From the NCBI GenBank assembly GCA_947478315.1, contig CANJWF010000001.1:1-35892 (forward strand): a stretch of DNA of 35,892 nucleotides, in the 5' to 3' direction. This stretch comes from Sphingobacteriaceae bacterium. Lineage in GTDB: Bacteria > Bacteroidota > Bacteroidia > Sphingobacteriales > Sphingobacteriaceae. The notes beneath the pieces were generated by a model. The model was given only the letters and a program-made list of their open reading frames with translations, was not told the DNA's origin and searched no databases. This document shows positions 645-30,681 of the stretch, piece after piece. Position 1 is the first letter of the stretch. The number at the start of each line of letters is the position of its first letter. A program made the position numbers and the translations under genes.

Positions 645-706
645 CCATTGAAAAACAACCTACGAAGCACGCATGAATACCATTGAGGAACAAACACTAA
701 TGAAAA
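645..706 (+). repeat. Degenerate fragment of the R150 repeat family upstream of lipB
   Basis: CCATTGAAAAACAACC and CATGAATACCATTGAGGAACAAACACTAATGAAAAA match the internal and terminal modules of R150 (compare CATGAATACCATGAAAGATAAAACACTAATGAA in the GH2 copy). Confidence 0.5.
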
Positions 707-714
707 ATTAACAG

Positions 715-1422
715 ATGAAAAATAAAAAAGTTGTATTTGAAGACTGGGGTCTAATAGATTATCAAGAGGCATGGACGAAACAAGAAACAATTTTTGCAGA
801 AACAGTTCAAATAAAAACGACGAATAGAGAAAGTTCTACACCTCAAGCTACCGATAATTATTTAATTTTTTGTGAGCACCCGCATGTGTACACTCTAGGA
901 AAAAGTGGACTCATGGACCATCTATTATTAGACGAGAAAACATTAACAAGTAAAAAAGCCTCTTTTTACAAAATTAATCGAGGTGGCGACATCACGTACC
1001 ACGGACCAGGACAAATTGTAGGCTATCCTATTTTAGATTTAGAAAATTTTTTCACCGACATTCACCAATATCTTCGTCTTTTAGAAGAGGCTATTATTTT
1101 AACTTTAGCAGACTATGGCATAAAAAGTGGTAGAATTTCGGGTATGACAGGTGTTTGGCTTGACGGAGACAACAAACAAAAGGCTAGAAAAATTTGTGCA
1201 ATGGGCGTACGCTGTAGCCGTTGGGTAACGATGCATGGTTTTGCACTAAATATCAACACTCAACTAGATTATTTTAATCACATTGTCCCCTGTGGCATTA
1301 GCGACAAAGCAGTTACTTCACTATCGACAGAGTTAAAAAAAACAGTCGATATAGATGAAGTTAAAAAAATATTAAAAAGACACCTTATCGAACTTTTTGA
1401 AATGGACTCTATTGCAGATTAA
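715..1422 (+). CDS. lipB: Octanoyl/lipoyl-[ACP]:protein transferase
   Basis: 235 aa. NRGGDITYHGPGQIVGYPILDL and KICAMGVRCSRWVTMHGFALN are classic LipB motifs, including the catalytic Lys/Cys region. Confidence 0.9.
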   Translation: MKNKKVVFEDWGLIDYQEAWTKQETIFAETVQIKTTNRESSTPQATDNYLIFCEHPHVYTLGKSGLMDHLLLDEKTLTSKKASFYKINRGGDITYHGPGQIVGYPILDLENFFTDIHQYLRLLEEAIILTLADYGIKSGRISGMTGVWLDGDNKQKARKICAMGVRCSRWVTMHGFALNINTQLDYFNHIVPCGISDKAVTSLSTELKKTVDIDEVKKILKRHLIELFEMDSIAD

Positions 1423-3580: not shown

Positions 3581-4267
3581 ATGCCCAATTTAAAGTTCAT
3601 CTATTGTTTCTTTATACTCGTAGGAATCGTTTGCTCAACCGTACTATTATTAGATGCTTGTACAAAAGAGAGTATACAATCCGAAAAAACCATTTATTTT
3701 CAAAACGATGTCTTGCCCATTTTTCAATCCAATTGCACGCAAGCAGGATGTCATAACGCCAAAGATAAAGCAGAAGGTTATGATTTAACAAGCTATGAAA
3801 GCATCATGGCATCTAAAAAAAGTAAAGGCATTAAACCTGGAGATTATAAAAATAGTAGTATCTATGAATCCTTAGTGACAGGAGGACCTGACTTGATGCC
3901 TGCAAACCCATACAACCCACTTTCTGATGCACAAATCACTACCATAGCCCTTTGGATTAAACAAGGAGCACTCAACAACTCTACCACTACAAACGTCGAT
4001 TTAAATAACGTTACCTACACCCTCTCTGTTAAACCCATTTTAGACACCTATTGTAAAGGCTGTCACTCTTCGAGCAATGCAGGAGGAAATATTTCTTATG
4101 AAGACTACACCAATACACAAGTAACCGCGAATAATGGCAAACTATTGGGTAGCATCCAGCAATTATCAACAAACTATAAAGCAATGCCGCAAGGAGGTAA
4201 TAAACTTTCAGATAACAACATCGCCATTATTCAAAAATGGATTAGTAATGGCAGCCCGAACAACTAA
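3581..4267 (+). CDS. Lipoprotein with two heme-binding-type domains (one CX4CH and one CXXCH motif)
   Basis: Signal peptide with lipobox (LLLDAC). Internal duplication: FQNDVLPIFQSNCTQAGCHN and VKPILDTYCKGCHSS. Resembles PSCyt/Haem_bd-type c-type heme domains. Paralogue of the next gene. Confidence 0.6.
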   Translation: MPNLKFIYCFFILVGIVCSTVLLLDACTKESIQSEKTIYFQNDVLPIFQSNCTQAGCHNAKDKAEGYDLTSYESIMASKKSKGIKPGDYKNSSIYESLVTGGPDLMPANPYNPLSDAQITTIALWIKQGALNNSTTTNVDLNNVTYTLSVKPILDTYCKGCHSSSNAGGNISYEDYTNTQVTANNGKLLGSIQQLSTNYKAMPQGGNKLSDNNIAIIQKWISNGSPNN

Positions 4268-4281
4268 ACAACAATCATAAT

Positions 4282-4962
4282 ATGTCCATTAAAAAAGTTA
4301 AGACCCAATTACTTTTTCTTTCACTCATCACGTTAAGCATATATAGCTGTAAAAAAGATAGCGATAGTAGTACAACCATACCCGATGCAACCATTTCAAA
4401 CACAACTGTCTATTTTCAAAACGATGTATTACCTATTTTTCAATCTAGTTGTGCTATGAATGGTTGTCACAATAGTACCAATAAAGTAGATGGATACGAC
4501 CTATCAAACTACGATGCCATTTTATCTAAAGGAATTACCAAAGGAAATTATAAGTCTAGTAAAATTTATACAGAAATAGCCAATGGAGCTATGCCTCCCC
4601 GCGGGTACACCGCTATAACGTCCACTCAACTCAACTCCATCGCATCTTGGATACAACAGGGAGCACTCAATAACATCACTAATACTACTTCCGACTTAAA
4701 CAATATTACCTATTCTCAATCTGTTAAACCCATTTTAGACACCTATTGTAAAGGATGCCATTCTTCAAGCCTAGCCAGTGGAGGCATCTCTTATCAAGAT
4801 TACGCTAACACCCAAATAACTGCAAACAATGGTAAACTATTAGGTAGCATTCAACAACTATCAGCCAACTATAAAGCAATGCCACAAGGAGGGAACAAAC
4901 TTTCCGACAACACCATTGCCATTATTCAAAAATGGATTAACAATGGTAGCCCCAACAATTAA
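4282..4962 (+). CDS. Lipoprotein with two heme-binding-type domains (paralogue of 3581-4267)
   Basis: Lipobox SIYSC. FQNDVLPIFQSSCAMNGCHN and VKPILDTYCKGCHSS. The C-terminal ~80 aa are nearly identical in protein sequence to the upstream gene. Confidence 0.6.
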   Translation: MSIKKVKTQLLFLSLITLSIYSCKKDSDSSTTIPDATISNTTVYFQNDVLPIFQSSCAMNGCHNSTNKVDGYDLSNYDAILSKGITKGNYKSSKIYTEIANGAMPPRGYTAITSTQLNSIASWIQQGALNNITNTTSDLNNITYSQSVKPILDTYCKGCHSSSLASGGISYQDYANTQITANNGKLLGSIQQLSANYKAMPQGGNKLSDNTIAIIQKWINNGSPNN

Positions 4963-8400: not shown

Positions 8401-9366
8401 ATGAATACTACTAAAAATGGAGTAGAAGAATTAGATGCTTTATGTGCATCTTACCAATCCGTAAAATCAGAAATAAGTAAAATTATTATCGGTCAGGACG
8501 ATGTTGTGAAAGCCGTTTTAATGGCAATTTTCAGCAATGGTCATTGCCTATTAGTCGGTGTACCTGGTTTAGCAAAAACTTTACTCATACAAACACTCGC
8601 ACAAGCACTCGATTTAAGTTTCAATCGCGTACAATTTACGCCTGATTTAATGCCATCGGACATTTTAGGAGCAGAGGTATTTGGTGACGACCGTAATTTT
8701 AAATTCATTAAAGGTCCAGTTTTTGCCAATATTGTTCTAGCCGATGAAATAAATCGTACACCCCCTAAAACACAATCTGCACTTTTAGAAGCCATGCAAG
8801 AACGAGCAGTAACCGTTGCTGGCGTATCTCACCGCTTGCCAGCACCTTTTTTCGTGCTAGCCACACAAAATCCTATTGAACAAGAGGGTACATACCCTTT
8901 ACCCGAGGCGCAATTAGACCGGTTTATGTTCAACATTGTGTTAGAATACCCTACTTTAGAACAAGAGATAGCTGTTGTAAAATCGACAACTGGCACTCAT
9001 CCAGTAAGCGTACAAAAAATAATGGGAGCTCAAGAGATTTTAAAATTCCAGCAACTCATTCGAGGTTTACCCATTACCGATCATGTATTAGAATACGCCG
9101 TTCGACTAGCTACGAAAACACGGCCTAATACTCCCTTAGCAACCTTAGAAGTCAATAAATTTTTGAATTGGGGAGCAGGACCACGAGCCTCACAACAATT
9201 AGTATTAGGCGCCAAATGTCATGCCGCCATTCAAGGAAAATATGCTCCCGACGTGGAGGATGTGCAAGCTGTTGCCATTAATGTCTTACGTCACCGTATT
9301 GTCCGAAACTACAAAGCCGAAGCCGAAGGAATGACAGTAGAAAAAATTATTACCAATTTGTTTTAA
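8401..9366 (+). CDS. MoxR-family AAA+ ATPase
   Basis: Walker A GVPGLAKT, Walker B LADEINR, QNPIEQEGTYPLPEAQLDRF. Typical ~320 aa MoxR/RavA-like protein. Confidence 0.9.
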   Translation: MNTTKNGVEELDALCASYQSVKSEISKIIIGQDDVVKAVLMAIFSNGHCLLVGVPGLAKTLLIQTLAQALDLSFNRVQFTPDLMPSDILGAEVFGDDRNFKFIKGPVFANIVLADEINRTPPKTQSALLEAMQERAVTVAGVSHRLPAPFFVLATQNPIEQEGTYPLPEAQLDRFMFNIVLEYPTLEQEIAVVKSTTGTHPVSVQKIMGAQEILKFQQLIRGLPITDHVLEYAVRLATKTRPNTPLATLEVNKFLNWGAGPRASQQLVLGAKCHAAIQGKYAPDVEDVQAVAINVLRHRIVRNYKAEAEGMTVEKIITNLF

Positions 9367-9540
9367 CAAGAAACTGTTACGATAAAGTAAGGCATTTGTA
9401 TAAACGCTATTAAAAAACTACTCTCAATCATACAGACTATTGCTACGAATACGGTCGTTCAAAAATTTTAAGATAAAGCCAAACAAAATCAACAGATTGT
9501 CAATTCTATCGATACACTTTTAACAGAAAATACTAAACCG

Positions 9541-9548
9541 TAATTTTG
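9541..9548 (+). promoter_or_regulatory. Bacteroidota -7 box (TAATTTTG)
   Basis: Exact TAnnTTTG match 27 nt upstream of the ATG at 9575. Confidence 0.4.
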
Positions 9549-9574
9549 TTATCAAACTCACTAAAAAAAATAAT

Positions 9575-9985
9575 ATGTATCCAGAATATTTAGTTGCTCC
9601 AATGAGAGAAGAATTGACCAAAGCAGGCTTTGAAGACCTCAGCTCAGTAGAAGAAGTAGAAACTGCTATTCAATCGCAAGGAACCACATTCGTGGTCATA
9701 AATTCTGTTTGCGGTTGTGCTGCCGCTAATGCTCGCCCAGCAGCACGTTTAGCGGCACAAAACGTAAAAAAACCCACCAAAATGATTACCGTATTTGCCG
9801 GAGTATCGAAAGATGCGGTAGATAGTGCACGTAAGTTTATGTTGCCCTATCCCCCCTCATCGCCTGCAATGGCCTTATTCAAAGATGGCAAATTAGTACA
9901 CATGATTGAACGTCACCAAATCGAGGGACGCGCAGCACAAATGATTGCAGATAATTTGGTAGAAGCCTTCAACCAATACTGTTAA
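9575..9985 (+). CDS. Bacilliredoxin (BrxA/BrxB, YphP/YqiW family)
   Basis: 136 aa with the family's INSVCGCAAANARP redox motif (CGC). Confidence 0.75.
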   Translation: MYPEYLVAPMREELTKAGFEDLSSVEEVETAIQSQGTTFVVINSVCGCAAANARPAARLAAQNVKKPTKMITVFAGVSKDAVDSARKFMLPYPPSSPAMALFKDGKLVHMIERHQIEGRAAQMIADNLVEAFNQYC

Positions 9986-11327: not shown

Positions 11328-14087
11328 TTAATCATTTACACAAATAACTGTAAGATTTTTCTTTACTTCCGCCAATGATAAAGATGTTTTAAGCCAAATT
11401 TTAACCTCTTGTTGCGGAAGTAAATCAAAGAAATTATCACTAAAATGATAACTAGCAGTGTTACCCATTTTTAAGCAAACATTTTTTGCCAAAGTTTTGC
11501 TCTTTAGTTTAATAACAATTCGGTCATTCTCACTCAACACATCGGTATCAATAACAGTTTTAGGTAATAAGAGAGCCTTAGGAGACGTAAAATAAAGTAT
11601 ATTTTGGCTTACTTGTTCATTATCCACCCACAATTCAGCCGTTAAAAAACACTTTTTTTTATCCATATCTTTTTTTAAAAAAGAAGTTTTAGCCACGAAC
11701 ACCGTAAAGTTCATCGCTGGATTAATATCATATAGCGCATCTTTTTGCCATAATACTTTACCTTCTACATCTATCAATTTTAAATATAATGTACCCTCTA
11801 CAGGAATAAGTTTATCAGAAACAAGGCTAATTTTTATCGTATCATTTTGACAAATTGCATGGACTAACAATGGCGAATAGGCCTTTTTAACAAAATATTG
11901 AGCAGCTTTCCATCGCTCATGGCTATCAATCGTTGAATGACTAATAGTAAATGTATAATCATTAAAATGCGAGTAAATTATACCCGTGGTAAATGGTTGT
12001 TTTCTCCGATTATATTCGATAAATGTCTTCAAGCGTTCGGCCTGCAATAGCTGACTAAAATAACTGAGCCTTTGTGTGTCAACGCTATCTATTATCGGAT
12101 AATATTGGCGAATATCGGCCAATAACAAGGTCATATAAGATTGTTGCCATTGGTGTATATCCCTATCAAACACAATACTATCTGGCATAGATAAAGATGA
12201 AAAAAAGGGAGAATTAGAACCTGAAACATCGCTACTTTTCAACATTGCATCTTCATCTGAAAACAAATTATTTTTTGAAGAAGAATTCTTAGCAGCATTA
12301 TCATGCCTCTGTGAAAGAATATGACTCACGGATATTTCATCTGTTAATTTGTTTTTTAATGGTGATGAAGAACCCATAACAACATTATCATTCTTCTTTG
12401 TGAGCGTATTGCTCATGGGTGTTTCATTTCCTTCTATAAACGGTCGCTTTTTTATTACAGCTTCTTCGAGAGCGCGCGCCAAAGGAGATTCGGTACCATG
12501 CAAACACAATCGACCAGAATCCAAATTATGAATCATTCCCGGAATAACAACATCAAATAACGTCTGATTAGATGGGAATAGCTTGTGTTTAAGTTGCTGG
12601 TACTGCACATACGATGAATCAACCGTTTCATTAGAACAAAATTTGTTTTTCAATGGATTAATGGAATGCCCAAACGTATTATTCATTAGTGTTTTATCTT
12701 TCATGGTATTCATGAATGCAAAGCATTTCATCTCGGTTGGTGAGTACTCGCTCATGAGCATTTCATCAGCAGCAGAATTGTAGGCAACACCGTTAACACT
12801 CCACATCGCAATAGAAGGATGATTTCGCAAGCGTTTTATTTGATAGTCGAGTTCTTTACGAACGTTATTAACAAACAAGGTATCTGTTGGATAATTTGTA
12901 TCGGTAAACATTAAATCTTGCCACACCAAAATACCATTTTCATTTGCCAAACGATAAAAATCATTAGATTCATATACGCCCCCACCCCAAACTCTGATGA
13001 TATTAAAATTGGACGTTACCATATCTGCAAACAAACGCCTGTATTTGTCCTTATCCGCATGCGGTGTAAGTATATCCGTAGGCAGCCAAACAGCTCCCTT
13101 TAAAAATATCTTCTTCCCATTTAATTTTACCTGAAGTTGCCCTTGTTGTTCCAATACTTCAAGTGTTCTTAAGCCTATTCTTTCGGAGCGAATATCCTCT
13201 TCATTAGTAGTGGTAACCTTAAAATTCAAACTATATACATAAGGAGTACCCAAATCATGAGTCCACCAACGCTCTGGATTCGCAATTTCGAAAGGAATTT
13301 CAATAACTTGCACCCCCTCTTCAAGGTCAACTTCTTTTAAAATAGAGTTTTGAATAGACAAAGTTGCATGCTGTGCGTAAGTAGACTCCACCTCTATTTT
13401 TGCCAACAGTTCTGCCTTAGTATCCGACAGTGCCAATTGTTGAAGATGGATATTAAGAAGACGAACATCATTCCACATCAATAATCGAATAGGCTTCCAA
13501 ATACCTACCGATACTTTACTCGAAACAAAGGGAGATGCAAATTGATAAGCGGCCTTCCTCAAGCAAGGGCTCAAAGCGCACAACGATAGGCTATCTACTG
13601 AAGAGGTATTTGCGGAAAATGTACGATAAGCCTGATTCATCACCTGATTTAAAGCTCCAAATACAATTCTCAATCGGTTAGTACCTTTTTTTAAAAAAGG
13701 CTTCAATCGCATTTCAACGGGGACAAACATATTGTCGTTATGTAGAATGAGACTATCATTCAGAAATACATCCGCGTAAGTATCTAAACCTTCAAATAAA
13801 ATATTGATATGCTCGTATTTAAGATGGTAACTACTAATCGTAAAAGTAGTTTCATATTCCCAAGCACTTTGAGTAATTGAAGCAGCGAGGTTATTAGGCT
13901 CCGAAGAATCTTGAATTTTTTTATTCAGTAACAAATCAGTATACAGGTTGCCAGGAACCTGAGCAGCAAGCCAATTAACATCCCCAACTTGCCTAAACAA
14001 CCAATTGGTTTTTAACTCGGTTTTATAAAGGGCGTAAATTTGTGTAGAGAAAATGTAAAATGTAGATAATAATAAGTATTTCCTCAT
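11328..14087 (-). CDS. Glycoside hydrolase family 2 beta-mannosidase homologue carrying two in-frame repeat insertions; catalytic residues apparently lost
   Basis: Signal peptide. N-terminal WLAAQVPGNLYTDLL and FEGLDTYADVFLND, and TIM-barrel RVWGGGVYESNDFYRLANENGILVWQDLMF, match GH2 beta-mannosidases. First ATG is at 14087 (MRKYLLL). See findings for the insertions and the missing glutamates. Confidence 0.8.
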   Translation of the reverse strand: MRKYLLLSTFYIFSTQIYALYKTELKTNWLFRQVGDVNWLAAQVPGNLYTDLLLNKKIQDSSEPNNLAASITQSAWEYETTFTISSYHLKYEHINILFEGLDTYADVFLNDSLILHNDNMFVPVEMRLKPFLKKGTNRLRIVFGALNQVMNQAYRTFSANTSSVDSLSLCALSPCLRKAAYQFASPFVSSKVSVGIWKPIRLLMWNDVRLLNIHLQQLALSDTKAELLAKIEVESTYAQHATLSIQNSILKEVDLEEGVQVIEIPFEIANPERWWTHDLGTPYVYSLNFKVTTTNEEDIRSERIGLRTLEVLEQQGQLQVKLNGKKIFLKGAVWLPTDILTPHADKDKYRRLFADMVTSNFNIIRVWGGGVYESNDFYRLANENGILVWQDLMFTDTNYPTDTLFVNNVRKELDYQIKRLRNHPSIAMWSVNGVAYNSAADEMLMSEYSPTEMKCFAFMNTMKDKTLMNNTFGHSINPLKNKFCSNETVDSSYVQYQQLKHKLFPSNQTLFDVVIPGMIHNLDSGRLCLHGTESPLARALEEAVIKKRPFIEGNETPMSNTLTKKNDNVVMGSSSPLKNKLTDEISVSHILSQRHDNAAKNSSSKNNLFSDEDAMLKSSDVSGSNSPFFSSLSMPDSIVFDRDIHQWQQSYMTLLLADIRQYYPIIDSVDTQRLSYFSQLLQAERLKTFIEYNRRKQPFTTGIIYSHFNDYTFTISHSTIDSHERWKAAQYFVKKAYSPLLVHAICQNDTIKISLVSDKLIPVEGTLYLKLIDVEGKVLWQKDALYDINPAMNFTVFVAKTSFLKKDMDKKKCFLTAELWVDNEQVSQNILYFTSPKALLLPKTVIDTDVLSENDRIVIKLKSKTLAKNVCLKMGNTASYHFSDNFFDLLPQQEVKIWLKTSLSLAEVKKNLTVICVND
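12335..12428 (+). mobile_element. R93 repeat (MITE-like, internally palindromic), copy inside the GH2 CDS
   Basis: About 94% identical by eye to 19346-19438 (5 substitutions, 1 indel). ATGAAGAACCCAT and ATGGGTGTTTCAT form imperfect inverted arms. Confidence 0.75.
12626..12767 (-). mobile_element. R150 modular repeat, copy inside the GH2 CDS
   Basis: Its reverse complement shares the ends GATGAAATGCTCATGAG..CACCAACC and GGGCATTCCATTA.TCCATTGAAAAACAAATT..TTCTAATGAAA with the copies at 25534-25686 and 25735-25849. Confidence 0.75.
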
Positions 14088-14486
14088 TAGCAACAACGAT
14101 TATTAACGGATATTGAACGTGAAATATGACCATAAAGTTTTAAAAGGTGTATCTTAAAGTAAGCGTAAAGCATGCTCAGTTTAAGCACAAAACATAGACC
14201 TATAAAATAGTACTACACTAGTCTGTTTTGCAATTCAATGTAAATATTTACACAGTAAACTACTGTAAATAAACTACTTGACAAGCTCAATTATTTTTCC
14301 GTTATTGCACCCCTATAGCGGTTCGTCCATATTATGGCGACACACGAATCTTTTTAATTTTAAAATACGTATTTTGTAACGAGAATTTTACACCCCAACA
14401 CGTTTAACATAACACTTAGGTTGAATGTTTTTCAATCTAAGATTATATCAAATAATTTTTTATTCATTTACCTATTACCTAATACT

Positions 14487-15200
14487 ATGGGAAAGCACAT
14501 AGATTATCTAAAAGATTACCCCAATTCAGGAAAATTCCAACACGTGTTGCGGGATAAAGTAAAGGAAATGCAAAATTTGTTGGATAGCACGCACAACGCA
14601 AACAACCCTCAATTGAAAAATCAGTTGAAAGAAAAAATCGAAAGTATCAATGTAATGTTAGGTAACTATGATGCTTTTTTCACCGAGCTAATTAATACGC
14701 TTAGCATATCGTTAGAAAAAGATTTTGAAACAGGTATGCGAAAAATGGCACAAATGGAAAGTGTATGCGAATTCACTGAAATTTTTGTAACCATCCTAAA
14801 CATGTTTATGACACTAATGCAAGAGCGTGAAATAGAAGAAAACTACAGTACACCCAATTGCATCGTACAATCTATATTGAATAAAAATGAGTTAATTATC
14901 GTCACAGATAGTTGCGGACACATCGATTATATAAGTGAAAACATTGACGCAAACATGCATTGTGCCGATGAAATTAAAGGAGAATTGAAAATTATTACCG
15001 ACGACCATATAGATAGCATACTAATGCCCATGCTTACTACCACCGAAGAAGCCATACAACTCGCACTTACCAACAAACGCAACTACCACGGATTTGTTAA
15101 ATTATTTGTAGGAGCCATACCCTGCCAAATAACGGAAGAACGACTGCGAAATAACCTAGTGATGTACAACATTCGGTTAACCACCTTGCTGCAAAACTAA
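14487..15200 (+). CDS. Hypothetical protein (helical N-terminus, PAS-like C-terminal half)
   Basis: Long ORF with normal codon usage. The first ATG (MGKHIDYL) is preferred over the track's TTG. No motif recognised; the PAS-like call is only a fold impression. Confidence 0.45.
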   Translation: MGKHIDYLKDYPNSGKFQHVLRDKVKEMQNLLDSTHNANNPQLKNQLKEKIESINVMLGNYDAFFTELINTLSISLEKDFETGMRKMAQMESVCEFTEIFVTILNMFMTLMQEREIEENYSTPNCIVQSILNKNELIIVTDSCGHIDYISENIDANMHCADEIKGELKIITDDHIDSILMPMLTTTEEAIQLALTNKRNYHGFVKLFVGAIPCQITEERLRNNLVMYNIRLTTLLQN

Positions 15201-15204
15201 GCAC

Positions 15205-15645
15205 TATTTAGTCAGTCCTAAAAAGCACTTAAAAAGCTATATGATAGGTCATTAAATTGAAAAAGTTAACAAAAAATCTGCAAGATTTTAGATAAAACAC
15301 GTAGCAATCTTGCAGAAAAACCTTTCCGCTGTGCTTTGCGAAATGCAACAGCACCAAACATTCATAACCGTTTTTTGTCGCCTTATATTTGTCGGCAAAC
15401 ACCCAATTGCTAAAGCGCTGATTTTCAAAGACAAATATTCAGCGACGAGTTTTTCGTTGCTACTTTTTTTTACTCACAGAGGAGTAAGCCATCATAGGTG
15501 TTCGTGAATGCTTCGCATTTCGCGGATACAACGAAGATAATCAGCGCTGCGCAGTCATGAGTTCCATGCAAAACAAACATTCACGAATAAAAAAAGTAGA
15601 GATAAGTGCGATAGACTTTTTGAGGGTCGGCTATTTAAAGCACTA
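15205..15645 (+). mobile_element. IR-A element, copy A1 (~440 bp MITE-like, terminal inverted repeats)
   Basis: Ends CTATTTAGTCAGTCCTAAAAAG and CTTTTTGAGGGTCGGCTATTTAAAG are inverted. Internal 11-bp hairpin TCTGCAAGATT/AATCTTGCAGA. Matches 16767-17093 in reverse complement, except for about 110-120 extra bp at ~15470-15590. Confidence 0.7.
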
Positions 15646-16053
15646 CTCAACAAACTGCTGCAACCAGTCCATCGCCTCTTCACGAGATAGAAACGCCTGC
15701 ACCGGAAAAGGAGTATAACGACGACTAATGGATAGAAAAAAAGTAGTTGCCAAATACTGCGGATAGCGATGTACCAAAATAGCCGAAGCAGACACATCCA
15801 CCATACTTTCGGGAAGTACGTAGTACTTCATCGCCTTTACGTCAATGTGACAAGCTTGATTGATATCGACAAATAGTGGGGTAGCATGCCTCTTTGTGAG
15901 TAATTGACGGTCTGCCGCGGTTAGCAATGCAATGGGGAAGGTAATGCGCTTTACCTCATCCTTAAAACGTTGAAACAATATGCCACCTTCGAGCTGATAG
16001 GTTAAATAGGCATTTTCGGCAAACAAGCTGGCATCGTTAGCATCGGGCATCAT
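15643..16053 (-). CDS. Small STAS/SpoIIAA-like protein (paralogue 1)
   Basis: About 136 aa, paralogous to 16312-16722 (shared GGI.FQ.FKD, IDV.AMKY.VLP, DV.ASAI, RR..PFPV, WLQQF). Resembles the STAS-like N-terminal modules of Bacteroidota sensor proteins, by recollection only. ATG at 16053 or 16050. Confidence 0.45.
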   Translation of the reverse strand: MMPDANDASLFAENAYLTYQLEGGILFQRFKDEVKRITFPIALLTAADRQLLTKRHATPLFVDINQACHIDVKAMKYYVLPESMVDVSASAILVHRYPQYLATTFFLSISRRYTPFPVQAFLSREEAMDWLQQFVE

Positions 16054-16088
16054 TACATACAATTTAACTAACTGGGAATAGACCTTTC

Positions 16089-16290
16089 ATGCGTAATTTG
16101 GGTTAAAAGATACCCAATACGGCAATTTTGGCAAATAGGTCGTTAAAAAAGCTGTGCTGGGTTATCCTGAACTCGATTCAGAATCTATTAGATTGCGGAG
16201 CAAGTCCGCAATGACCGCTCTTTTTAGAAACCGCTAAGAACTTTATTGCCCCTCTGCCCTTTTTATAGAATTTGAACCCAAATTCGCATT
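16089..16290 (+). mobile_element. IR-B element, copy B1 (~200 bp MITE-like)
   Basis: Terminal inverted repeats ATGCGTAATTTGGGTT and AACCCAAATTCGCAT. Internal hairpin ATTGCGGA-GCAAGT-TCCGCAAT. The reverse complement of 17138-17340 is about 90+% identical by eye. Confidence 0.7.
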
Positions 16291-16311
16291 ACTTATAAAA
16301 TTTTAACCGTT

Positions 16312-16722
16312 TTACATAAACTGCTGTAACCACAGCACGCCTTCGCGTCTCGATTTTACCACCTCTACGGGAAAAGGTATTTGACGGCGATAAAACCGAA
16401 GAAAAAATTTGGCAACCGCATATTGCAAATAGCTATCAATACAGATAGCCGAAGCCAACACATCTTGGGTACTTGCCGGCAATACAAAATATTTCATAGC
16501 AGCAACATCTATACGCTTAGAACTACTATAACTTACATCAACCAACAAAAGCACAGGTTTTTTTTGAGTGAACGATTGTCTTCCATTCGTAATCTCTACA
16601 GCCATATCCACATTAATTTCCTTAAACCCACTATCCTTAAATACCTGAAAGACGATGCCACCATCAATCCAATATTGAGCGTAATCATTTTCGTAGAAAG
16701 GGGTATCCGTATTTGCATCCAT
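16312..16722 (-). CDS. Small STAS/SpoIIAA-like protein (paralogue 2)
   Basis: 136 aa; see paralogue 1. The antisense ORF at 16381-16749 is rejected. Confidence 0.45.
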   Translation of the reverse strand: MDANTDTPFYENDYAQYWIDGGIVFQVFKDSGFKEINVDMAVEITNGRQSFTQKKPVLLLVDVSYSSSKRIDVAAMKYFVLPASTQDVLASAICIDSYLQYAVAKFFLRFYRRQIPFPVEVVKSRREGVLWLQQFM

Positions 16723-16766
16723 AAAGAGAATTTATTAAACCAACACTAAGGTAGCATATTTTAAAC

Positions 16767-17093
16767 TATTTAGTCGACCCTCAAAAGTCCATCGCACTTA
16801 TCTTTTCTTTTTTCTCCGCGAAAAAAGAAACAAAAAAGCTCGTCGCTGAATATTTGTCTTTGTAAGTCAGTGATTTTGCAATTTGGTGCTTACCGACAAA
16901 TATAAGGCGACAGGGGACGGTTATGAATGGCTGTATCTGTTGCAGCTCGCCATTATTGGTCGGGATAGGTTTTTCTGCAAGTTTTTAACGTGTTTTATCC
17001 AAAATCTTGCAGATTTTTTACCAAATTTTTCATTTTAATAACCTGTTATATACATTATTAAGTACTTTTTGAGGACCGACTATTTAAATAGCT
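16767..17093 (-). mobile_element. IR-A element, copy A2 (inverted relative to A1)
   Basis: The reverse complement aligns with 15205-15470 and 15590-15645, with the same termini and the same TCTGCAAGATT hairpin. Confidence 0.7.
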
Positions 17094-17137
17094 ACACTAA
17101 GCAAAAATAGTTGTTAGGCTACCCTATTCTTATTCTC

Positions 17138-17340
17138 AATGCGAATAATTGGTTCAAATTCTATAAAAAGGGCAGAGGTGCAATAAAGTTCTTAGCGGTT
17201 TCTACAAAGAGCGGTCATTGCGGACTTGCTCCGCAATCTAATAGATCCTGAATCGAGCTCAGGATAACCCAGCACAGCTTTTTTAACGACCTATTTGCTG
17301 AAATTACCGTATTGGGCATCTTTTAACCCAAATTACGCAT
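17138..17340 (-). mobile_element. IR-B element, copy B2 (inverted relative to B1)
   Basis: The reverse complement aligns end to end with 16089-16290. Confidence 0.7.
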
Positions 17341-17443
17341 TTTTAATATGAACCCATTTCTCTCTGATAACACCGCCAACACTCAAAGCGTAAAAATAAT
17401 TCCCTACCAAACCTCATTACTGTGTAATATTGCCCTATAATTA

Positions 17444-18853
17444 TTGAAAAATTACCCTTTAATTCTTTATTACCATGAAAAAAAACTTGATTTAATTAAT
17501 GAGATTTTACAAAACAGTAAATCTAAAGGCCTAACGCATCACGAGGCAGAAGAAAAAACTTATAATGGAAAAAATATTAGACTAAATGAGAAAAGTCTCA
17601 TAAACTTCGGGTCCTGTAGTTATATGGGTTTAGAAACCGACCATCGCCTCAAAAAAGCAGCTATCAACGCCATCGAAAAGTTTGGCATCAGCTATTCTTC
17701 TTCTCGTGCCTATCTATCAAGTCCGCTTTATTCAGAATTAGAATGTTTACTTGAGTCCCTATTCGATGCTCCTGTTGTCTTATTTGCTTCGGTGTCTATC
17801 GGGCATCAAGGCGTTATTCCCATCATAACCGAACAAGGTGACACCATTCTCTTAGACCAACAGGTGCACACAAGCGTACAAGATGCCGCACGCAAGGTGC
17901 AATGTAGTGGGGTAGGTCTTCAAGTTGTGCGACACAATGATTTGGATACTCTAGAGCAAAAAATTATTGAATTAAGTTCTCAAACTGGCAAAATTTGGTA
18001 TATGTGCGATGGGGTTTACTCTATGTATGGCGATGTTGCCCCCATCAAAGCCTTAATTGCCTTAGCAGAACGCTATCCAGCATTTCATATCTATGTAGAT
18101 GATGCCCATGGCATGAGCTGTTTCGGCAACAATGGCACAGGGTTTGTGATGAGCCAAACCCCACTACACCCCAACATGGTTCTTTGCACAGGCATGGCAA
18201 AAGCTTTCGGAGCCATCGGAGGGCTGTTTGTGTTTCACAACAAAGCCTTAGCCGAAAAAGTACGCAATTGTGCAGGGCCGTTAATTTTTTCGGGTCAGCA
18301 ATCAAGTGCCGTGTTGGGCGCAAGCATTGCATCTGCTAAAATTCACTTATCGGAAGAGATTAACATCCGACAAAATGCGTTAGCAGCGCATATTAGTTAT
18401 TGTCATCAACTTTTAAAACAGCACGGCTTGCCCAATATATCGGATGCACGTGTTCCTGTTTTTTTTATCGCGGTAGGCACCATTAGCATGGCAAGTAATT
18501 TAGTGAAACGGATGCTTAACGAAGGTTTTTATATCAATGGGACTACATTTCCTGCTGTACCCGAAGGCTGTAGTGGCATCCGATTTACCATTACCTTGCA
18601 CCATACTGTAGAGGACATTAAAAATATGGTAGAAGCACTTGCCAAACATTTCTTTTTGGCCCTGCATGAAGAAGGCAGAAACCTACAAGATATTCAACGT
18701 GCATTTAGGAGAATTGCCACTTTTGAAATCTCAAATGAGGAGGCTAAAATGCGTACCGAAAGAATAAGAGAAACTTTACATAAAATAAAAGTAACTCGCC
18801 ACAGTGAAATAACCCTAGTCGAACACGCAGACGACACCCTCTCGGTAATTTAA
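17444..18853 (+). CDS. Alpha-oxoamine synthase family PLP enzyme (AONS/KBL/serine-palmitoyltransferase-like) with a C-terminal extension
   Basis: FGSCSYMGLE, VDDAHGMSCFG and the PLP-lysine motif CTGMAKAFGAIGG match the AOS family. About 70 extra C-terminal residues. The start is uncertain: TTG, with no in-frame ATG until residue ~61. Confidence 0.7.
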   Translation: MKNYPLILYYHEKKLDLINEILQNSKSKGLTHHEAEEKTYNGKNIRLNEKSLINFGSCSYMGLETDHRLKKAAINAIEKFGISYSSSRAYLSSPLYSELECLLESLFDAPVVLFASVSIGHQGVIPIITEQGDTILLDQQVHTSVQDAARKVQCSGVGLQVVRHNDLDTLEQKIIELSSQTGKIWYMCDGVYSMYGDVAPIKALIALAERYPAFHIYVDDAHGMSCFGNNGTGFVMSQTPLHPNMVLCTGMAKAFGAIGGLFVFHNKALAEKVRNCAGPLIFSGQQSSAVLGASIASAKIHLSEEINIRQNALAAHISYCHQLLKQHGLPNISDARVPVFFIAVGTISMASNLVKRMLNEGFYINGTTFPAVPEGCSGIRFTITLHHTVEDIKNMVEALAKHFFLALHEEGRNLQDIQRAFRRIATFEISNEEAKMRTERIRETLHKIKVTRHSEITLVEHADDTLSVI

Positions 18854-19057: not shown

Positions 19058-19351
19058 TTAAAGTTTTAAATCTTTCGGGTTACGACGGTTATCCCAAAAA
19101 AATAAAAGATATATCCCGTCATCATTAGGATAATAGTAAACGGAAATTATATTGGTTAAAACAGCACGTCTAACATTTTGATATTTATCTGATTCTTGAA
19201 AAGAAAATGGATTATTACGAATGTGTGTAAGTAGTTCTTGTGTTCTTTCGATGAATTTTTGATACTCTCTATTAGTCCAATTTTTTATCAAGTAATCTAT
19301 TAAATCGTTAAACGAACGTTCTGCATTAATAGTCCAAAAAATATCTTTCAT
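19058..19351 (-). CDS. Type II toxin, ParE/RelE family
   Basis: 97 aa. Its layout (N-terminal helical hairpin, then the C-terminal LLFFWDNRRNPKDL) matches Bacteroidota plasmid-stabilisation ParE-like toxins. Confidence 0.7.
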   Translation of the reverse strand: MKDIFWTINAERSFNDLIDYLIKNWTNREYQKFIERTQELLTHIRNNPFSFQESDKYQNVRRAVLTNIISVYYYPNDDGIYLLFFWDNRRNPKDLKL

Positions 19352-19438
19352 CTGTTAATTTGTTTTTTATGGTGATGAAGAACCCATAACAACATTATCA
19401 TCCTCCTTTGTGAGGATAGTGCTCATGGGTGTTTCATT
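19346..19438 (+). mobile_element. R93 repeat, copy between the antitoxin and toxin genes
   Basis: Near-identical to 12335-12428. It spans the whole antitoxin-toxin spacer and overlaps the toxin ATG (19349-19351) and the antitoxin stop (19434-19436). Confidence 0.75.
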
Positions 19439-19751
19439 CGCTTTTTAAATACTTGGCATTACATCTATTAAAAACTTCTTCTGTAGTAGAAACTAAACCA
19501 TTTTTAGCCTGTTCCATTGACTCTTTCAATACCCTACCTATGTACACAGATTCATATTCAGCTGGATATATAAGCGAAAAAATCTTTATCAACTCATTAA
19601 TATCAAAGCGTTTTTCTTTCAATTTTTTGTAGTAAGTAGTTTTTGTTACCCCCAACTCTTTGACAATATATTCCACTTTATAATGACTATTTGCAATATG
19701 TTTCCCAATATCATTAAGTAAATCTTTTGTTTCAAAAATCGCTTGTATCAT
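19434..19751 (-). CDS. Putative cognate antitoxin (small DNA-binding-like protein)
   Basis: 105 aa ORF directly upstream of the ParE-like toxin on the same strand. The call rests on position only. Confidence 0.4.
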   Translation of the reverse strand: MIQAIFETKDLLNDIGKHIANSHYKVEYIVKELGVTKTTYYKKLKEKRFDINELIKIFSLIYPAEYESVYIGRVLKESMEQAKNGLVSTTEEVFNRCNAKYLKSE

Positions 19752-25734: not shown

Positions 25735-25849
25735 TAAAAAACAAACTATTTTTATATGAAATGCCCATGAGTGGGTGCTCACCAACCGATGATGAATACG
25801 TTTGGGCATTCCATTAGTCCATTGAAAAACAAATTATATTCTAATGAAA
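25735..25849 (+). mobile_element. R150 modular repeat, intergenic copy 2 (short form), overlapping the lnt start codon
   Basis: AAAAAACAAACTATTTTTATATGAAATGCCCATGAGTGGGTGCTCACCAACCGATGATGAATACGTTTGGGCATTCCATTAGTCCATTGAAAAACAAATTATATTCTAATGAAAA. The final ATG is the lnt start. Confidence 0.7.
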
Positions 25850-27487: not shown

Positions 27488-27495
27488 TACTTTTG
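27488..27495 (+). promoter_or_regulatory. Bacteroidota -7 box (TACTTTTG) for the riboswitch-nrdBA transcript
   Basis: Exact TAnnTTTG match immediately after the lnt stop and ~35 nt upstream of the riboswitch core. Confidence 0.35.
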
Positions 27496-27529
27496 TCGTA
27501 CAACGTGGTTGTGTATATATTTTTATACA

Positions 27530-27705
27530 GAGTATAACACATTAAAAGGGAATTCGGTGTAAATCCGAAGCTATCCCCGTAGCTGTAAGTTCATTATCTA
27601 TTTAGCATCCCTCGCCACTGTCCATATCATAGGACGGGAAGGCCGTTAAATAAAGAACAAGCCAGAAGACCTGCCAGTAACTAACACCAATTTCATTTAG
27701 CTTTC
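27530..27705 (+). promoter_or_regulatory. Cobalamin (B12) riboswitch
   Basis: AAAAGGGAATTCGGTGTAAATCCGAAGCTATCCCCGTAGCTGTAAG, GCCACTG, GGGAAGGCC and the B12 box AGCCAGAAGACCTGCC (27660-27675) follow the Cobalamin riboswitch consensus. Confidence 0.85.
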
Positions 27706-27929: not shown

Positions 27930-28904
27930 ATGGCATCCTCTATTTTAACTCCACGATTAGCTTTTAAACCTTTTAAATACCAATGGGCCTATGAATATTG
28001 GTTTAAACAACAAAATGCACATTGGTTACATACCGAAATCAACATGCAAAAAGATCTTAAAGATTGGTTAGAGGAATTATCAAATGCCGAAAAAAATGTA
28101 ATCGGAAACATACTAAAAGGATTTGCCCAAACAGAAACACATGTAGAAGATTATTGGACGCAATACGTTACACATTGGTTTCCTATACCCGAAATTAAAA
28201 TGATGGCTACCGCTTTCGGCAACATGGAAACCATTCACGCAACGGCTTATTCCTATCTTAATGACACGTTAGGCTTAGATGATTTTCAGGCTTTTATGAG
28301 TGATACAGCCACCATGAATAAATTAGATGTACTTATCAACGTCAATAATAATGATTCGTCTATCGAACATATCGGACGCTCCATCGCATTATTTTCAGCA
28401 TGTGCAGAAGGCATACAATTGTTCAGTTCATTCGCGGTATTGCTTTCATTTAGGAAAAAAAATTTACTAACAGGAATAGGTCAACAAATGATATTCTCCA
28501 TTAGAGACGAAAGTTTACATAGCGAAGCAGGATGTAAGTTATTTCGAACACTTATCGAAGAAAATTCTGGCATTTTTACGGAATCATTCAAAAAAAGCAT
28601 TTACGAAGGCGTCGACTTAGCACTTCAACTAGAATTCAATTATATCGATAAAATATTTGAATTAGGCGATTTAGAAAGTATCACAAAATCACAACTCAAA
28701 ACATTTATGCATGATCGAGCAAATCGCAAACTACAAGAATTACTATTGTCGCCCGCATATACTGTAGATAATGCCCTCATACAAGAAATGGAATGGTTTT
28801 ATCTAATGGTTTCAGGAGAACAACAAACCGATTTTTTCGCCAATCGAGAAACAGGATATGCTAAACCTAATGACGATTGGAATAATATAGAAGACCTATT
28901 TTGA
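27930..28904 (+). CDS. nrdB: Class I ribonucleotide reductase small (beta) subunit
   Basis: Ferritin-like di-metal motifs METIHATAYSY (ExxH plus Tyr at +7) and IRDESLHSE (ExxH); 324 aa. Confidence 0.9.
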   Translation: MASSILTPRLAFKPFKYQWAYEYWFKQQNAHWLHTEINMQKDLKDWLEELSNAEKNVIGNILKGFAQTETHVEDYWTQYVTHWFPIPEIKMMATAFGNMETIHATAYSYLNDTLGLDDFQAFMSDTATMNKLDVLINVNNNDSSIEHIGRSIALFSACAEGIQLFSSFAVLLSFRKKNLLTGIGQQMIFSIRDESLHSEAGCKLFRTLIEENSGIFTESFKKSIYEGVDLALQLEFNYIDKIFELGDLESITKSQLKTFMHDRANRKLQELLLSPAYTVDNALIQEMEWFYLMVSGEQQTDFFANRETGYAKPNDDWNNIEDLF

Positions 28905-28953
28905 AAACACGGAAAATTTCAATCACCTACATCATTTCACAAACTACATAAAA

Positions 28954-30681
28954 ATGGAAACACACGTATTAGCGAAAAAAAAAGGTTGGAAATCTGGAAT
29001 TGACTTTCCAGAATGGGGTAACAATGCCCTCTATCTAACTACTATACAAGGAGGCTATCTACAAACCCATGAAACACCTAAAGACGCTTATAATCGTTTA
29101 GCGACAACAGCTGCCCACCACCTCCAAGATGCAACTTTAGCCAAGGCATTTTTTAACATATTTTGGAATGGATGGCTCATCCCAGCAACACCCGTTATGT
29201 CTAATATGGGAACAGAAAGAGGATTACCCATTTCATGTTTTGCAGGATTAATCGGAGACGATATGTATGAAATTTATCGCAAAAATTTAGAAATGGCCAT
29301 GTTATCAAAACATGGAGGAGGTACAGCCTATGATTTTTCTGCAATTCGACCAATTGGTTCAGCCATAAAGGCAGGACTCAATGGTAGCTCAGATGGAGTT
29401 ATACCCTTTATAAAATCCTTCGATTCAACCATCCTTGCGGCAAAACAAGGTTCCATGAGAAGAGGAGCCGTAGCCATTTATCTTAATGCAGAACACGAAG
29501 AATACCGTTCTTTTTTAGAAATAAGAGAACCCAAAGGAGATATCAATAGGCAAGCACATAATGTACATCAAGGTAGTATTTTTTCCGATAATTTCATGGA
29601 ACAAGTAGTCTCAAAACATGGAAAAGAACGTGAATTATGGTTAGAAACCATCAAAAAAAGAGTTAAAACAGGCGAACCTTACTGCTTTTTTATCGATAAC
29701 GCTAACAAGCAGTTACCTGATTTTTTTCAGAAAAATAATCTACGAGTAAAACATTCCAACTTATGTTCCGAAATTATGCTACCAACAGATGACAAACATA
29801 CTTTAGTTTGTTGCCTATCTTCCCTTAATCTACTCAAATGGGATGAATGGAAAGATACTAACACTGTACAATTGAGTATTTTATTTTTGGATGCCGTCAT
29901 CACCGAATTTCTAAATCGGTCAACAACAATTATGGGTATTGAAGATGCGCATAAATTCGCCACAAAATCACGTGCATTAGGCTTAGGTGCATTAGGATGG
30001 CACTCTCTATTACAAAGCAAACTCATTCCATTTATTAGTCTAGAATCTAATGCATTAACCCGAATCATATTCGGACACATTCAACAAGAAGCAGAAAAGG
30101 CCACGCTATATCTAGCACAAAAATTTGGAGAGTCTGAATGGTGTAAAAATACTGGCAGAAGAAACTTAACCTGTTTGGCAATAGCACCTAATAGAAGCAG
30201 TTCAAAATTAGCAGGAGGATTATCTCAAGGGGTAGAACCTATAGCTGCTAACGTATATATGGACGACGATGCCAAAGGGATACACATTCGAAGAAACACA
30301 TTTTTAGAAAATTTCTTAGAAAAAAAGGGACTAAATACACCTCAAGTTTGGGATCAGATTGCAGATGATAAAGGTAGTGTATTGCACCTAAAAGGTTTAA
30401 GTAAAGAGGAAAAAGATATTTTTCTTACATTCAAAGAAATCAATCAATTAGAATTAGTAAAGCAAGCTGCAATCAGACAAACTTATTTAGACCAAGGACA
30501 ATCTATTAACCTCGCATTTTATCAAGATGCCCCCGCAAGATTCATTAATCAAGTTCATCTAGAAGCGTGGCATTCAGGTTTAAAATCTTTATACTACCTA
30601 CGTTCAGAATCCATACTACGAGCAGATACCAAAATCATTCAGAGAGATTTATACTCAGAATGCCTATTGTGTGAAGGATGA
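28954..30681 (+). CDS. nrdA: Class I ribonucleotide reductase large (alpha) subunit, short form without an ATP-cone
   Basis: PISCFAG, the active-site NLCSEI, and the C-terminal redox cysteines CLLC. 575 aa, with no N-terminal ATP-cone sequence. Confidence 0.85.
   Translation: METHVLAKKKGWKSGIDFPEWGNNALYLTTIQGGYLQTHETPKDAYNRLATTAAHHLQDATLAKAFFNIFWNGWLIPATPVMSNMGTERGLPISCFAGLIGDDMYEIYRKNLEMAMLSKHGGGTAYDFSAIRPIGSAIKAGLNGSSDGVIPFIKSFDSTILAAKQGSMRRGAVAIYLNAEHEEYRSFLEIREPKGDINRQAHNVHQGSIFSDNFMEQVVSKHGKERELWLETIKKRVKTGEPYCFFIDNANKQLPDFFQKNNLRVKHSNLCSEIMLPTDDKHTLVCCLSSLNLLKWDEWKDTNTVQLSILFLDAVITEFLNRSTTIMGIEDAHKFATKSRALGLGALGWHSLLQSKLIPFISLESNALTRIIFGHIQQEAEKATLYLAQKFGESEWCKNTGRRNLTCLAIAPNRSSSKLAGGLSQGVEPIAANVYMDDDAKGIHIRRNTFLENFLEKKGLNTPQVWDQIADDKGSVLHLKGLSKEEKDIFLTFKEINQLELVKQAAIRQTYLDQGQSINLAFYQDAPARFINQVHLEAWHSGLKSLYYLRSESILRADTKIIQRDLYSECLLCEG

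Follow-up and report, generated by a model that had tools for sequence, protein, structure and literature searches.

Four repeats lie within 2.1 kb of the 35,892-nucleotide stretch of Sphingobacteriaceae DNA analysed here (GCA_947478315.1, contig CANJWF010000001.1, positions 1 to 35,892; hereafter the window), where they surround two genes encoding proteins of the Pfam family DUF7793. These repeats are very probably copies of two small, non-coding and non-autonomous mobile families, designated A and B, that were inserted independently and at different times in the spacers around the gene pair. The order along the window is A1(+), gene 1(-), B1(+), gene 2(-), A2(-), B2(-) (Table 1). Both order and orientation, as read from the sequence and the list of open reading frames (ORFs), are those of the original prediction, which had proposed a shufflon-like architecture and had named a hotspot for miniature inverted-repeat transposable elements (MITEs) as the alternative. 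The locus is one where MITEs have accumulated in the ordinary way, in a genome that is rich in repeats and partly eroding, and is not a shufflon-like device.

Comparison of the window with itself by blastn aligned A1 (15209-15469) with A2 (17082-16821) in inverted orientation, with 79.5% identity over 264 nt (E 3e-59), and a second block of the same pair (15590-15633 and 16813-16771) with 88.6% identity, the overall identity being ~80% over roughly 305 bp. B1 (16089-16290) and B2 (17340-17138) are likewise inverted and are 94.6% identical over 203 nt (E 6e-86). The similarity of 85-95% first estimated by eye thus holds for B, but was too high for A. No further copy of A or of B was found in the 36-kb window by this comparison.

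A third copy of A was detected using a single protein query in which six-frame translations of A and B were joined; the query gave one match in all, a radC gene call running into the repeat, and no copy of B. This copy, A3, occupies L062:9701-10070, a locus unrelated to that in the window, with a murF-alr fusion gene on one side and radC on the other; it is 89% identical to A1 and 84.5% identical to A2, with an intermediate length. The contig L062 shares its sample of origin with L068, a contig that matches the window at 99.995% identity over 21.3 kb, which makes it very probable that A3 belongs to the same genome.

The three aligned copies of A all end in terminal inverted repeats (TIRs) of ~20 bp (GTCRGTCCTCAAAAAG... 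and ...CTTTTTGAGGGTCGRC), and each is flanked by a 6-bp direct repeat, TAAATA/TATTTA. In the window, TATTTA is found at 15205-15210 and 15632-15637 around A1, and at 16768-16773 and 17081-17086 around A2. As TATTTA is read on the forward strand beside both A1 and A2 although the two elements are oppositely oriented, the hexamer belongs to the target sequence and not to the element. The single-strand fold predicted for A2 is closed by the TIRs and is better than that of shuffled sequence (z = -4.9). The copies are 307-421 bp long and non-coding, including only short spurious ORFs, and no gene is called there in public annotations. A1 occupies nearly the whole spacer between two convergent genes, lying, as originally described, between their stop codons at 15198-15200 and 15643-15645, and contains a terminator-like hairpin. 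It also carries the ~120 bp already noted as missing from A2, part of which is found in A3. This segment lies in the loop of the internal hairpin of A (CTACTTTTTTTT...AAAAAAAGTAG) and has 10-bp inverted ends of its own (TTCGTGAATG...CATTCACGAA); either it is an insert nested within the element, or A2 and A3 derive from the longer form by internal deletion.

Table 1. Positions of the repeats and neighbouring genes in the window.
Feature	Position	Strand	Basis and remarks
237-aa gene, function not assigned	14487..15200	+	ORF list and public gene call; convergent with gene 1
MITE copy A1	15205..15637 with target duplications; element proper 15211-15631	+	Three-copy alignment, blastn
A1 internal segment	15470..15589	+	~120 bp, missing from A2, partly in A3; alignments and direct reading
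Gene 1, DUF7793 protein, 136 aa	15643..16053	-	Pfam PF25056, E 4e-19; ATG as in public gene calls
Element copy B1	16089..16290	+	blastn/alignment to B2, TIR-closed fold; in the gene 2 - gene 1 spacer
B1 core, two tail-to-tail hairpins	16161..16215	.	Hairpin scan; same pair in B2 at 17214-17268
Gene 2, DUF7793 protein, 136 aa	16312..16722	-	Pfam, E 6e-16
MITE copy A2	16768..17086 with target duplications; element proper 16774-17080	-	L063 empty site; in the gene 2/PLP gene spacer
Element copy B2	17139..17340	-	blastn; 52 bp from the outer target duplication of A2
BioF/Kbl-type PLP-dependent acyltransferase gene	17444..18853	+	Homolog list, tblastn, NCBIfam and Pfam

An empty site for A2 was found in L063, a 1,015-bp Logan contig that was recovered in the homolog search with gene 2 and encodes a protein 95% identical to the gene 2 product. 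From the end of B2 via gene 2 into gene 1, L063 and the window are collinear. Its positions 1-128 are 92% identical to window positions 17207-17079, and B2 is present, while window positions 16773-17078, corresponding to A2, are missing. At this site L063 reads GCTATT-TAGATA-GTTTAAAA and the window reads GCTATT-TAAATA-A2-TAAATA-GTTTAAAA. The single TAGATA in L063, as compared with the doubled TAAATA around A2, defines an empty and a filled site with a 6-bp target duplication. Element A is thus a true MITE, with TIRs, target duplications, a distant copy and a clean empty site, and the MITE alternative in the original prediction is borne out by these features, together with the lack of B1 in L063.

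A further copy of A, which like A3 indicates that the element is dispersed, has a different right flank. It is carried by the 10.3-kb contig L069 (GCA_031546565.1, JAVQIJ010103334.1; positions 8688-9868; 29.7% GC), which is 96% identical to the window only over a fragment of the 237-aa gene and the A copy. Synteny stops exactly at the right end of A, and an IS1595-family transposase gene is located immediately upstream, with TTCGATTCGATT-type repeats on the downstream side. The break is due either to recombination at A or to a chimeric assembly.

B1 is not present in L063, where the spacer between gene 2 and gene 1 (L063 589-697) is an unrelated sequence of 109 bp with one hairpin of the repetitive extragenic palindromic (REP) type. 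Hence, different REP-bearing sequences occupy the same spacer in different strains. In the L063 hairpin, GTCATTGCGGGCTTTACCCGCAATCC, the A-T pair at the stem top of the B hairpin is replaced by G-C, a compensatory change. Given that L063 lacks A2 and B1 but includes B2, the four-copy arrangement is strain-specific and recent; the comparison of related strains that had been suggested as a check therefore favours insertion over a conserved architecture. As B2 is shared with L063, the most divergent strain, it would be the oldest insertion, with B1 and A2 later than the split from L063. A1 was found also in L070, L071 and L069, and thus in every strain contig that covers its site, L063 ending short of it. 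L070 and L071, which represent strains 94-99% identical, carry A1, gene 1 and the start of B1. Several contigs of other samples terminate within A1 or within B1, as is to be expected of repeats with many copies.

B, like A, has TIRs and a hairpin fold, both of which the original prediction had attributed to each family: in B1, the TIRs are 16 bp long (ATGCGTAATTTGGGTT / AACCCAAATTCGCAT), and the predicted single-strand fold is closed by them and better than that of shuffled sequence (z = -3.4). The B1 core consists of two hairpins, GTTATCCTGAACTCGATTCAGAATCTA (16161-16187, forward strand) and GTCATTGCGGACTTGCTCCGCAATCTA (16189-16215, reverse strand), both of the CGTC-tagged REP type. The class, which includes dRS3 of Neisseria and RPE-4/-6 of Rickettsia, is characterised by the tag, a stem of 8-9 bp beginning with A-T, a loop of 4-5 nt, a short tail and frequent dimers, and is reported in Bacteroidetes and other phyla with no dedicated transposase (Di Nocera et al. 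2013, PMC3733652). The core hairpin of B reads GGTC-ATTGCGGA-CTTGC-TCCGCAAT-CTA, and accordingly has a (C/G/T)GTC-like tag, an 8-bp stem starting from A-T, a 5-nt loop and a short unpaired tail, and is present as a dimer, all as defined for these repeats (PMC3733652). Unlike free-standing CGTC-tagged REPs, the pair is embedded in a TIR-bounded element of 202 bp, and its hairpins are arranged tail to tail, which is rare for CGTC repeats (PMC3733652). As judged from its sequence, B appears to be a composite, in which a TIR-bounded shell encloses a REP dimer. In this lineage, REP-type hairpins are scarce, the hairpin scan having found them only in B and in the L063 spacer.

When the representative genomes of GTDB were scanned with an 18-mer from the second hairpin of B (GGTCATTGCGGACTTGCTCCGCAATCTA), 55 loci were matched. 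About 38 of these share 25-26 nt rather than only 18, and the remaining ~17 correspond to the chance expectation for an 18-mer. The ~38 loci belong to metagenome-assembled genomes (MAGs) of Lachnospiraceae, Bacteroidales, Lentimicrobiaceae, Deferribacteraceae and Burkholderiales, and identical 25-26-nt copies in several phyla are a further likeness to CGTC-tagged REPs. The scan gave no full-length B.

This hairpin, GATTGCGGAGCAAGTCCGCAATGAC (window 16189-16215 and 17214-17240; loci L003-L055), is thus identical over 25-26 nt across MAGs of Bacillota, Bacteroidota, Deferribacterota and Pseudomonadota, which is striking. Many of the loci are from termite-gut MAGs, and one Lachnospiraceae MAG alone has more than 20 matched sites; the copies in this MAG are intergenic, and no transposase was found beside them. 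Variants neighbouring the hairpin retain the GTCAT/ATC flanks and the loop with a co-varying stem, which fits a CGTC-tagged REP (PMC3733652).

Several observations weigh against the conclusion that the four repeats are mobile elements. No target duplication was found for B, as the flanks of B1 and B2 include no common direct repeat at the homology boundaries, and L063 offers no clean empty site for B1, the different 109-bp sequence being found there instead. B was found nowhere outside this 1.3-kb stretch in scans of GTDB, JGI and IMG/VR or in the six-frame protein search. The scan of JGI metagenomes with a B-specific 20-mer gave two chance matches, though the JGI copy of B1, in L071, is mismatched inside that 20-mer, and the IMG/VR scan with one pattern for each of A and B gave zero matches for either. 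Rfam models applied to positions 15000-17600, at the gathering cut-off and at E <= 1, matched nothing in A or B, and a literature search by hairpin sequence gave only unrelated primer matches. For A, no autonomous partner with the same ends was found: no transposase was detected in the window, and in L069 the IS1595 transposase gene has ends unlike the TIR of A. The two copies of each family all fall within 2.1 kb, while the remaining 34 kb of the window has none, a clustering tighter than random insertion would give, such that local hopping or a permissive hotspot region is needed. Finally, the assemblies compared are consensus sequences, and rare inversion variants could therefore escape notice. 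The view of B as a dispersed mobile element, which is suggested by its TIR and palindrome structure, its REP-type core and the lack of B1 in L063, is thus the weakest part of the MITE interpretation.

If the four repeats are insertions, element A would have moved by cut-and-paste with a transposase supplied in trans, duplicating the 6-bp AT-rich target TAAATA, and element B (~202 bp, largely palindromic and bounded by TIRs) would also move. B2 would have been inserted first and B1 and A2 after the split from L063, and the clustering could arise from local hopping or from a permissive region. The interleaved inverted geometry would then be a by-product of successive insertions. By lengthening the divergent promoter spacer by ~575 bp, A2 and B2 may alter transcription, as may A1, with its terminator-like hairpin between convergent genes.

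Two undescribed MITE-like families of an uncultured, Cytophagales-like bacterium would accordingly have been caught mid-action, with one site seen both occupied and unoccupied, a proven target duplication of 6 bp, and insertions added one after another in 2 kb. That interleaved long inverted repeats can arise purely by repeated insertion in permissive spacers also calls for caution in scans for inverted-repeat switches.

The elements resemble the MITEs described in bacteria, such as Correia of Neisseria, Nezha of cyanobacteria and the MITEs of Coxiella burnetii, in being small and non-coding with TIRs and a long-hairpin fold, in their intergenic location near gene ends, in length variation due to internal indels, and, for A, in strain-polymorphic sites (PMC5896051). 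Such elements can bring terminators or promoters to adjoining genes (PMC5896051). A further likeness is the target-site duplication made by A. Neither A nor B corresponds in sequence to a known family: Rfam gave no match at E <= 1, and the GTDB representatives, JGI metagenomes and IMG/VR yielded no copy with the patterns used. Unlike in described MITEs, no parent insertion sequence was identified for either, and B has no target duplication. A also differs from Correia elements, which duplicate TA, in that it duplicates 6 bp at TAAATA.

The interleaving of two inverted pairs was the basis of the shufflon-like reading, in which a recombinase encoded elsewhere would invert B1-B2 and/or A1-A2, turning the DUF7793 genes round relative to promoters and to the neighbouring pyridoxal phosphate (PLP)-dependent acyltransferase gene and rendering their expression phase-variable. 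The geometry does permit multiple inversions, the repeats are located in promoter-containing spacers, and L070 and L071 end inside B1, as would follow from orientation polymorphism or from any repeat. Shufflons (R64 pilV/rci) and the invertons of Bacteroidetes share with this locus inverted repeats that bracket segments, interleaved pairs of which allow several arrangements. These systems use short sites of ~19-30 bp, usually with an adjacent gene for a tyrosine or serine recombinase, and a shufflon swaps coding ends while an inverton flips a promoter. The repeats examined here are instead complete element copies of 200-420 bp with their own TIRs and, in A, target duplications, and not short specific crossover sites. 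All four are intergenic, such that inversion would exchange no coding segment, and both genes are whole and subject to purifying selection. No recombinase, integrase, invertase or transposase domain was found in a Pfam scan of window ORFs of at least 90 aa or among the precomputed Pfam hits on the L001 gene calls, in agreement with the earlier reading of the 36 kb, the remaining content of which is housekeeping genes. The absence of A2 and B1 from L063 shows that the arrangement varies between strains and is not conserved, and the arms of the A pair are only ~80% identical. Scans with sigma-70 and Bacteroidetes-type promoter patterns gave no more matches than in shuffled sequence and are uninformative about switching; no convincing promoter was located by them inside the segments between the repeats, a promoter flip being conceivable on the sequence alone.

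The contigs that overlap the region argue in the same direction. There are ten of these in public data, from at least eight samples, all being consensus assemblies. Six (the window, L001, L066, L068, L070 and L071) span the junction from the 237-aa gene through A1 to gene 1, three (the window, L001 and L068) span the whole region, and L063 spans B2, gene 2 and gene 1. One orientation was found in every junction-spanning contig, and an inverted or deleted junction in none of the ten, although minority orientations are invisible in consensus assemblies. Programmed switching is therefore highly improbable, and the shufflon-like reading is not sustained.

Recombination between the repeats could also occur without any programme, through RecA, giving occasional inversion of the segment bounded by B1 and B2 and, far less often, of that bounded by A1 and A2, with low-frequency variants that serve no regulatory purpose. 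B1 and B2, with 203 bp at 94.6% identity and perfect runs of 41, 40, 26, 25 and 23 bp, exceed the minimal segment of ~23-27 bp reported for recombination by RecA in Escherichia coli, while the A pair, with a longest perfect run of 24 bp, is a poor substrate. The synteny break of L069 exactly at the right end of A would be explained by such an event, though equally by chimeric assembly, and a mosaic patch in gene 1 (see below) indicates that recombination is active in the population. On the other hand, the 5% of mismatches would depress recombination where mismatch repair is active, and none of the contigs holds an inverted or deleted variant. An occasional B1/B2 inversion is thus plausible from the sequence and an A1/A2 inversion unlikely, but RecA-mediated inversion is itself an unlikely explanation of the locus as a whole.

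Whichever enzyme were involved, RecA or a distant recombinase, it is very doubtful that the inverted copies of A and B act in vivo as recombination substrates that flip gene 2 or both DUF7793 genes in some cells. The original prediction had stated that a B1/B2 inversion would place gene 2 on the forward strand and turn A1 and A2 into direct repeats, and that an A1/A2 inversion would flip both genes; the geometry is correct, while the inversion itself stays hypothetical. Were it to occur, it would confer heritable and reversible heterogeneity in the expression of a conserved DUF7793/PLP-acyltransferase module, and the switch would have been built by chance from MITE insertions. The locus would then exemplify mobile elements creating a switch from nothing, but the current evidence does not point there.

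The two DUF7793 genes are paralogous, as originally proposed; their products are 46% identical (E 8e-37). The longest ORF of gene 1 begins at a TTG at 16062, and the reading frame is intact. As judged by the ratio of nonsynonymous to synonymous substitutions (dN/dS) between strains, which is 0.26-0.38 for gene 1 and 0.17 for gene 2 (against L063), both genes are under purifying selection. The label 'STAS-like' given to them previously is unverified: the sole solved relative matched by profile, 3BL4, is an uncharacterised protein, a single-sequence AlphaFold model of the gene 2 product (predicted local distance difference test score, pLDDT, 47) is unusable for the fold. A literature search found no paper mentioning DUF7793.

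The presence of two paralogs and two copies of each repeat within 2.1 kb might suggest that the repeats arose with the genes by a local segmental inverted duplication rather than by transposition. An inverted duplication of A-gene-B would yield B-gene-A; in the window, A2 stands next to B2 and precedes it, and no gene separates the two. The ages disagree as well, the genes being 46% identical as proteins and the B copies 95% identical as DNA. Moreover, A2 is flanked by a target duplication of its own and its site is unoccupied in L063, and another copy of A lies at an unrelated locus. On the grounds of order, age and empty site, this origin was rejected as scarcely credible. Gene 1 and gene 2 share only 20-29% identity with the copies in distant relatives, as compared with 46% between themselves, which indicates that the genes were duplicated in tandem long ago and in this lineage only, well before the B pair with its 95% identity arose.

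These distant relatives clarify the position of the insertions favoured above. In three of them (L057, L058 and L059), a single DUF7793 gene precedes the PLP gene at a distance of 45-230 bp and is oriented divergently to it, and gene 2 occupies the same position in the window. The gap between gene 2 and the PLP gene is 722 bp in the window, and A2 and B2 account for ~575 bp of it. A2 and B2 are thus insertions into a conserved divergent spacer.

The best homologs of the PLP gene, which are 58-66% identical, are found in Cytophagaceae-like MAGs and one NCBI assembly, and the homology spans 17600-18775 (tblastn with residues 1-402 of P0007). Nearly all of them are fusions of ~800 aa with a GNAT/FemAB-like domain, whereas the window gene corresponds to the N-terminal half only. 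The GNAT half was found nowhere in the window, and a ParE-type toxin-antitoxin pair follows the PLP gene instead. On the other side of the locus, the longest ORF of the 237-aa gene has 259 aa and starts from a TTG at 14421, with 4 bp separating its stop from the left target duplication of A1. The product matched no Pfam or NCBIfam family, and its similarity to the 215-219-aa PAS-like neighbour in the relatives (E 0.1-0.3) is too weak to judge orthology.

The window and L070 show 42 differences across 3.5 kb, of which 32 are concentrated in a patch of 150 nt inside gene 1 (15775-15924); the product of this patch is KRHATPLFVDINQACHIDV in the window and KNNPTPLLVDMNDVRFAKV in L070. One allele is common to the window and L063, the most divergent strain, and the other to L070 and L071. 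The patch is dimorphic and mosaic, which implies inter-strain recombination within gene 1.

The genome has several small repeat families besides A and B. An intergenic repeat at window positions 648-722 is 78% identical over 77 nt to L062 11999-12074, and its presence in both the window and the A3-bearing contig is consistent with one repeat-rich genome. Two other repeats, C and D, which are related to each other, have copies C1 (12332-12428) and D1 (12626-12766) in an ORF of 922 aa (11328-14096, reverse strand) for a beta-mannosidase of glycoside hydrolase family 2 (GH2), the reading frame of which remains open. Its alignment with BtMan2A is confined to residues 28-436 and 661-902, and the unaligned middle corresponds to BtMan2A residues 437-573, where the catalytic glutamates lie; against solved homologs, the catalytic region fails to align. 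C1 and D1, both in this middle part, look like either in-frame insertions of small repeats, as with the RPEs of Rickettsia, or part of an eroding gene. Their partners, C2 (19343-19438) and D2 (25756-25849), are intergenic. C2 fills the gap from the stop of the putative antitoxin gene (19434-19751) to the start of the ParE-like toxin gene (19058-19351), and its TTTCAT ends overlap the ATG of the latter.

Elsewhere in the window, a ribonucleotide reductase large-subunit ORF is short (575 aa), with the Pfam barrel domain matched in three separate stretches. A cobalamin riboswitch (27489-27692; Rfam RF00174, 103.8 bits) is located upstream of the genes for the small and large subunits of this enzyme (27930-30681). 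Two tandem paralogous genes for di-haem cytochromes c (3581-4267 and 4282-4962) are 79% identical at the DNA level in a 3'-terminal stretch of 316 nt.

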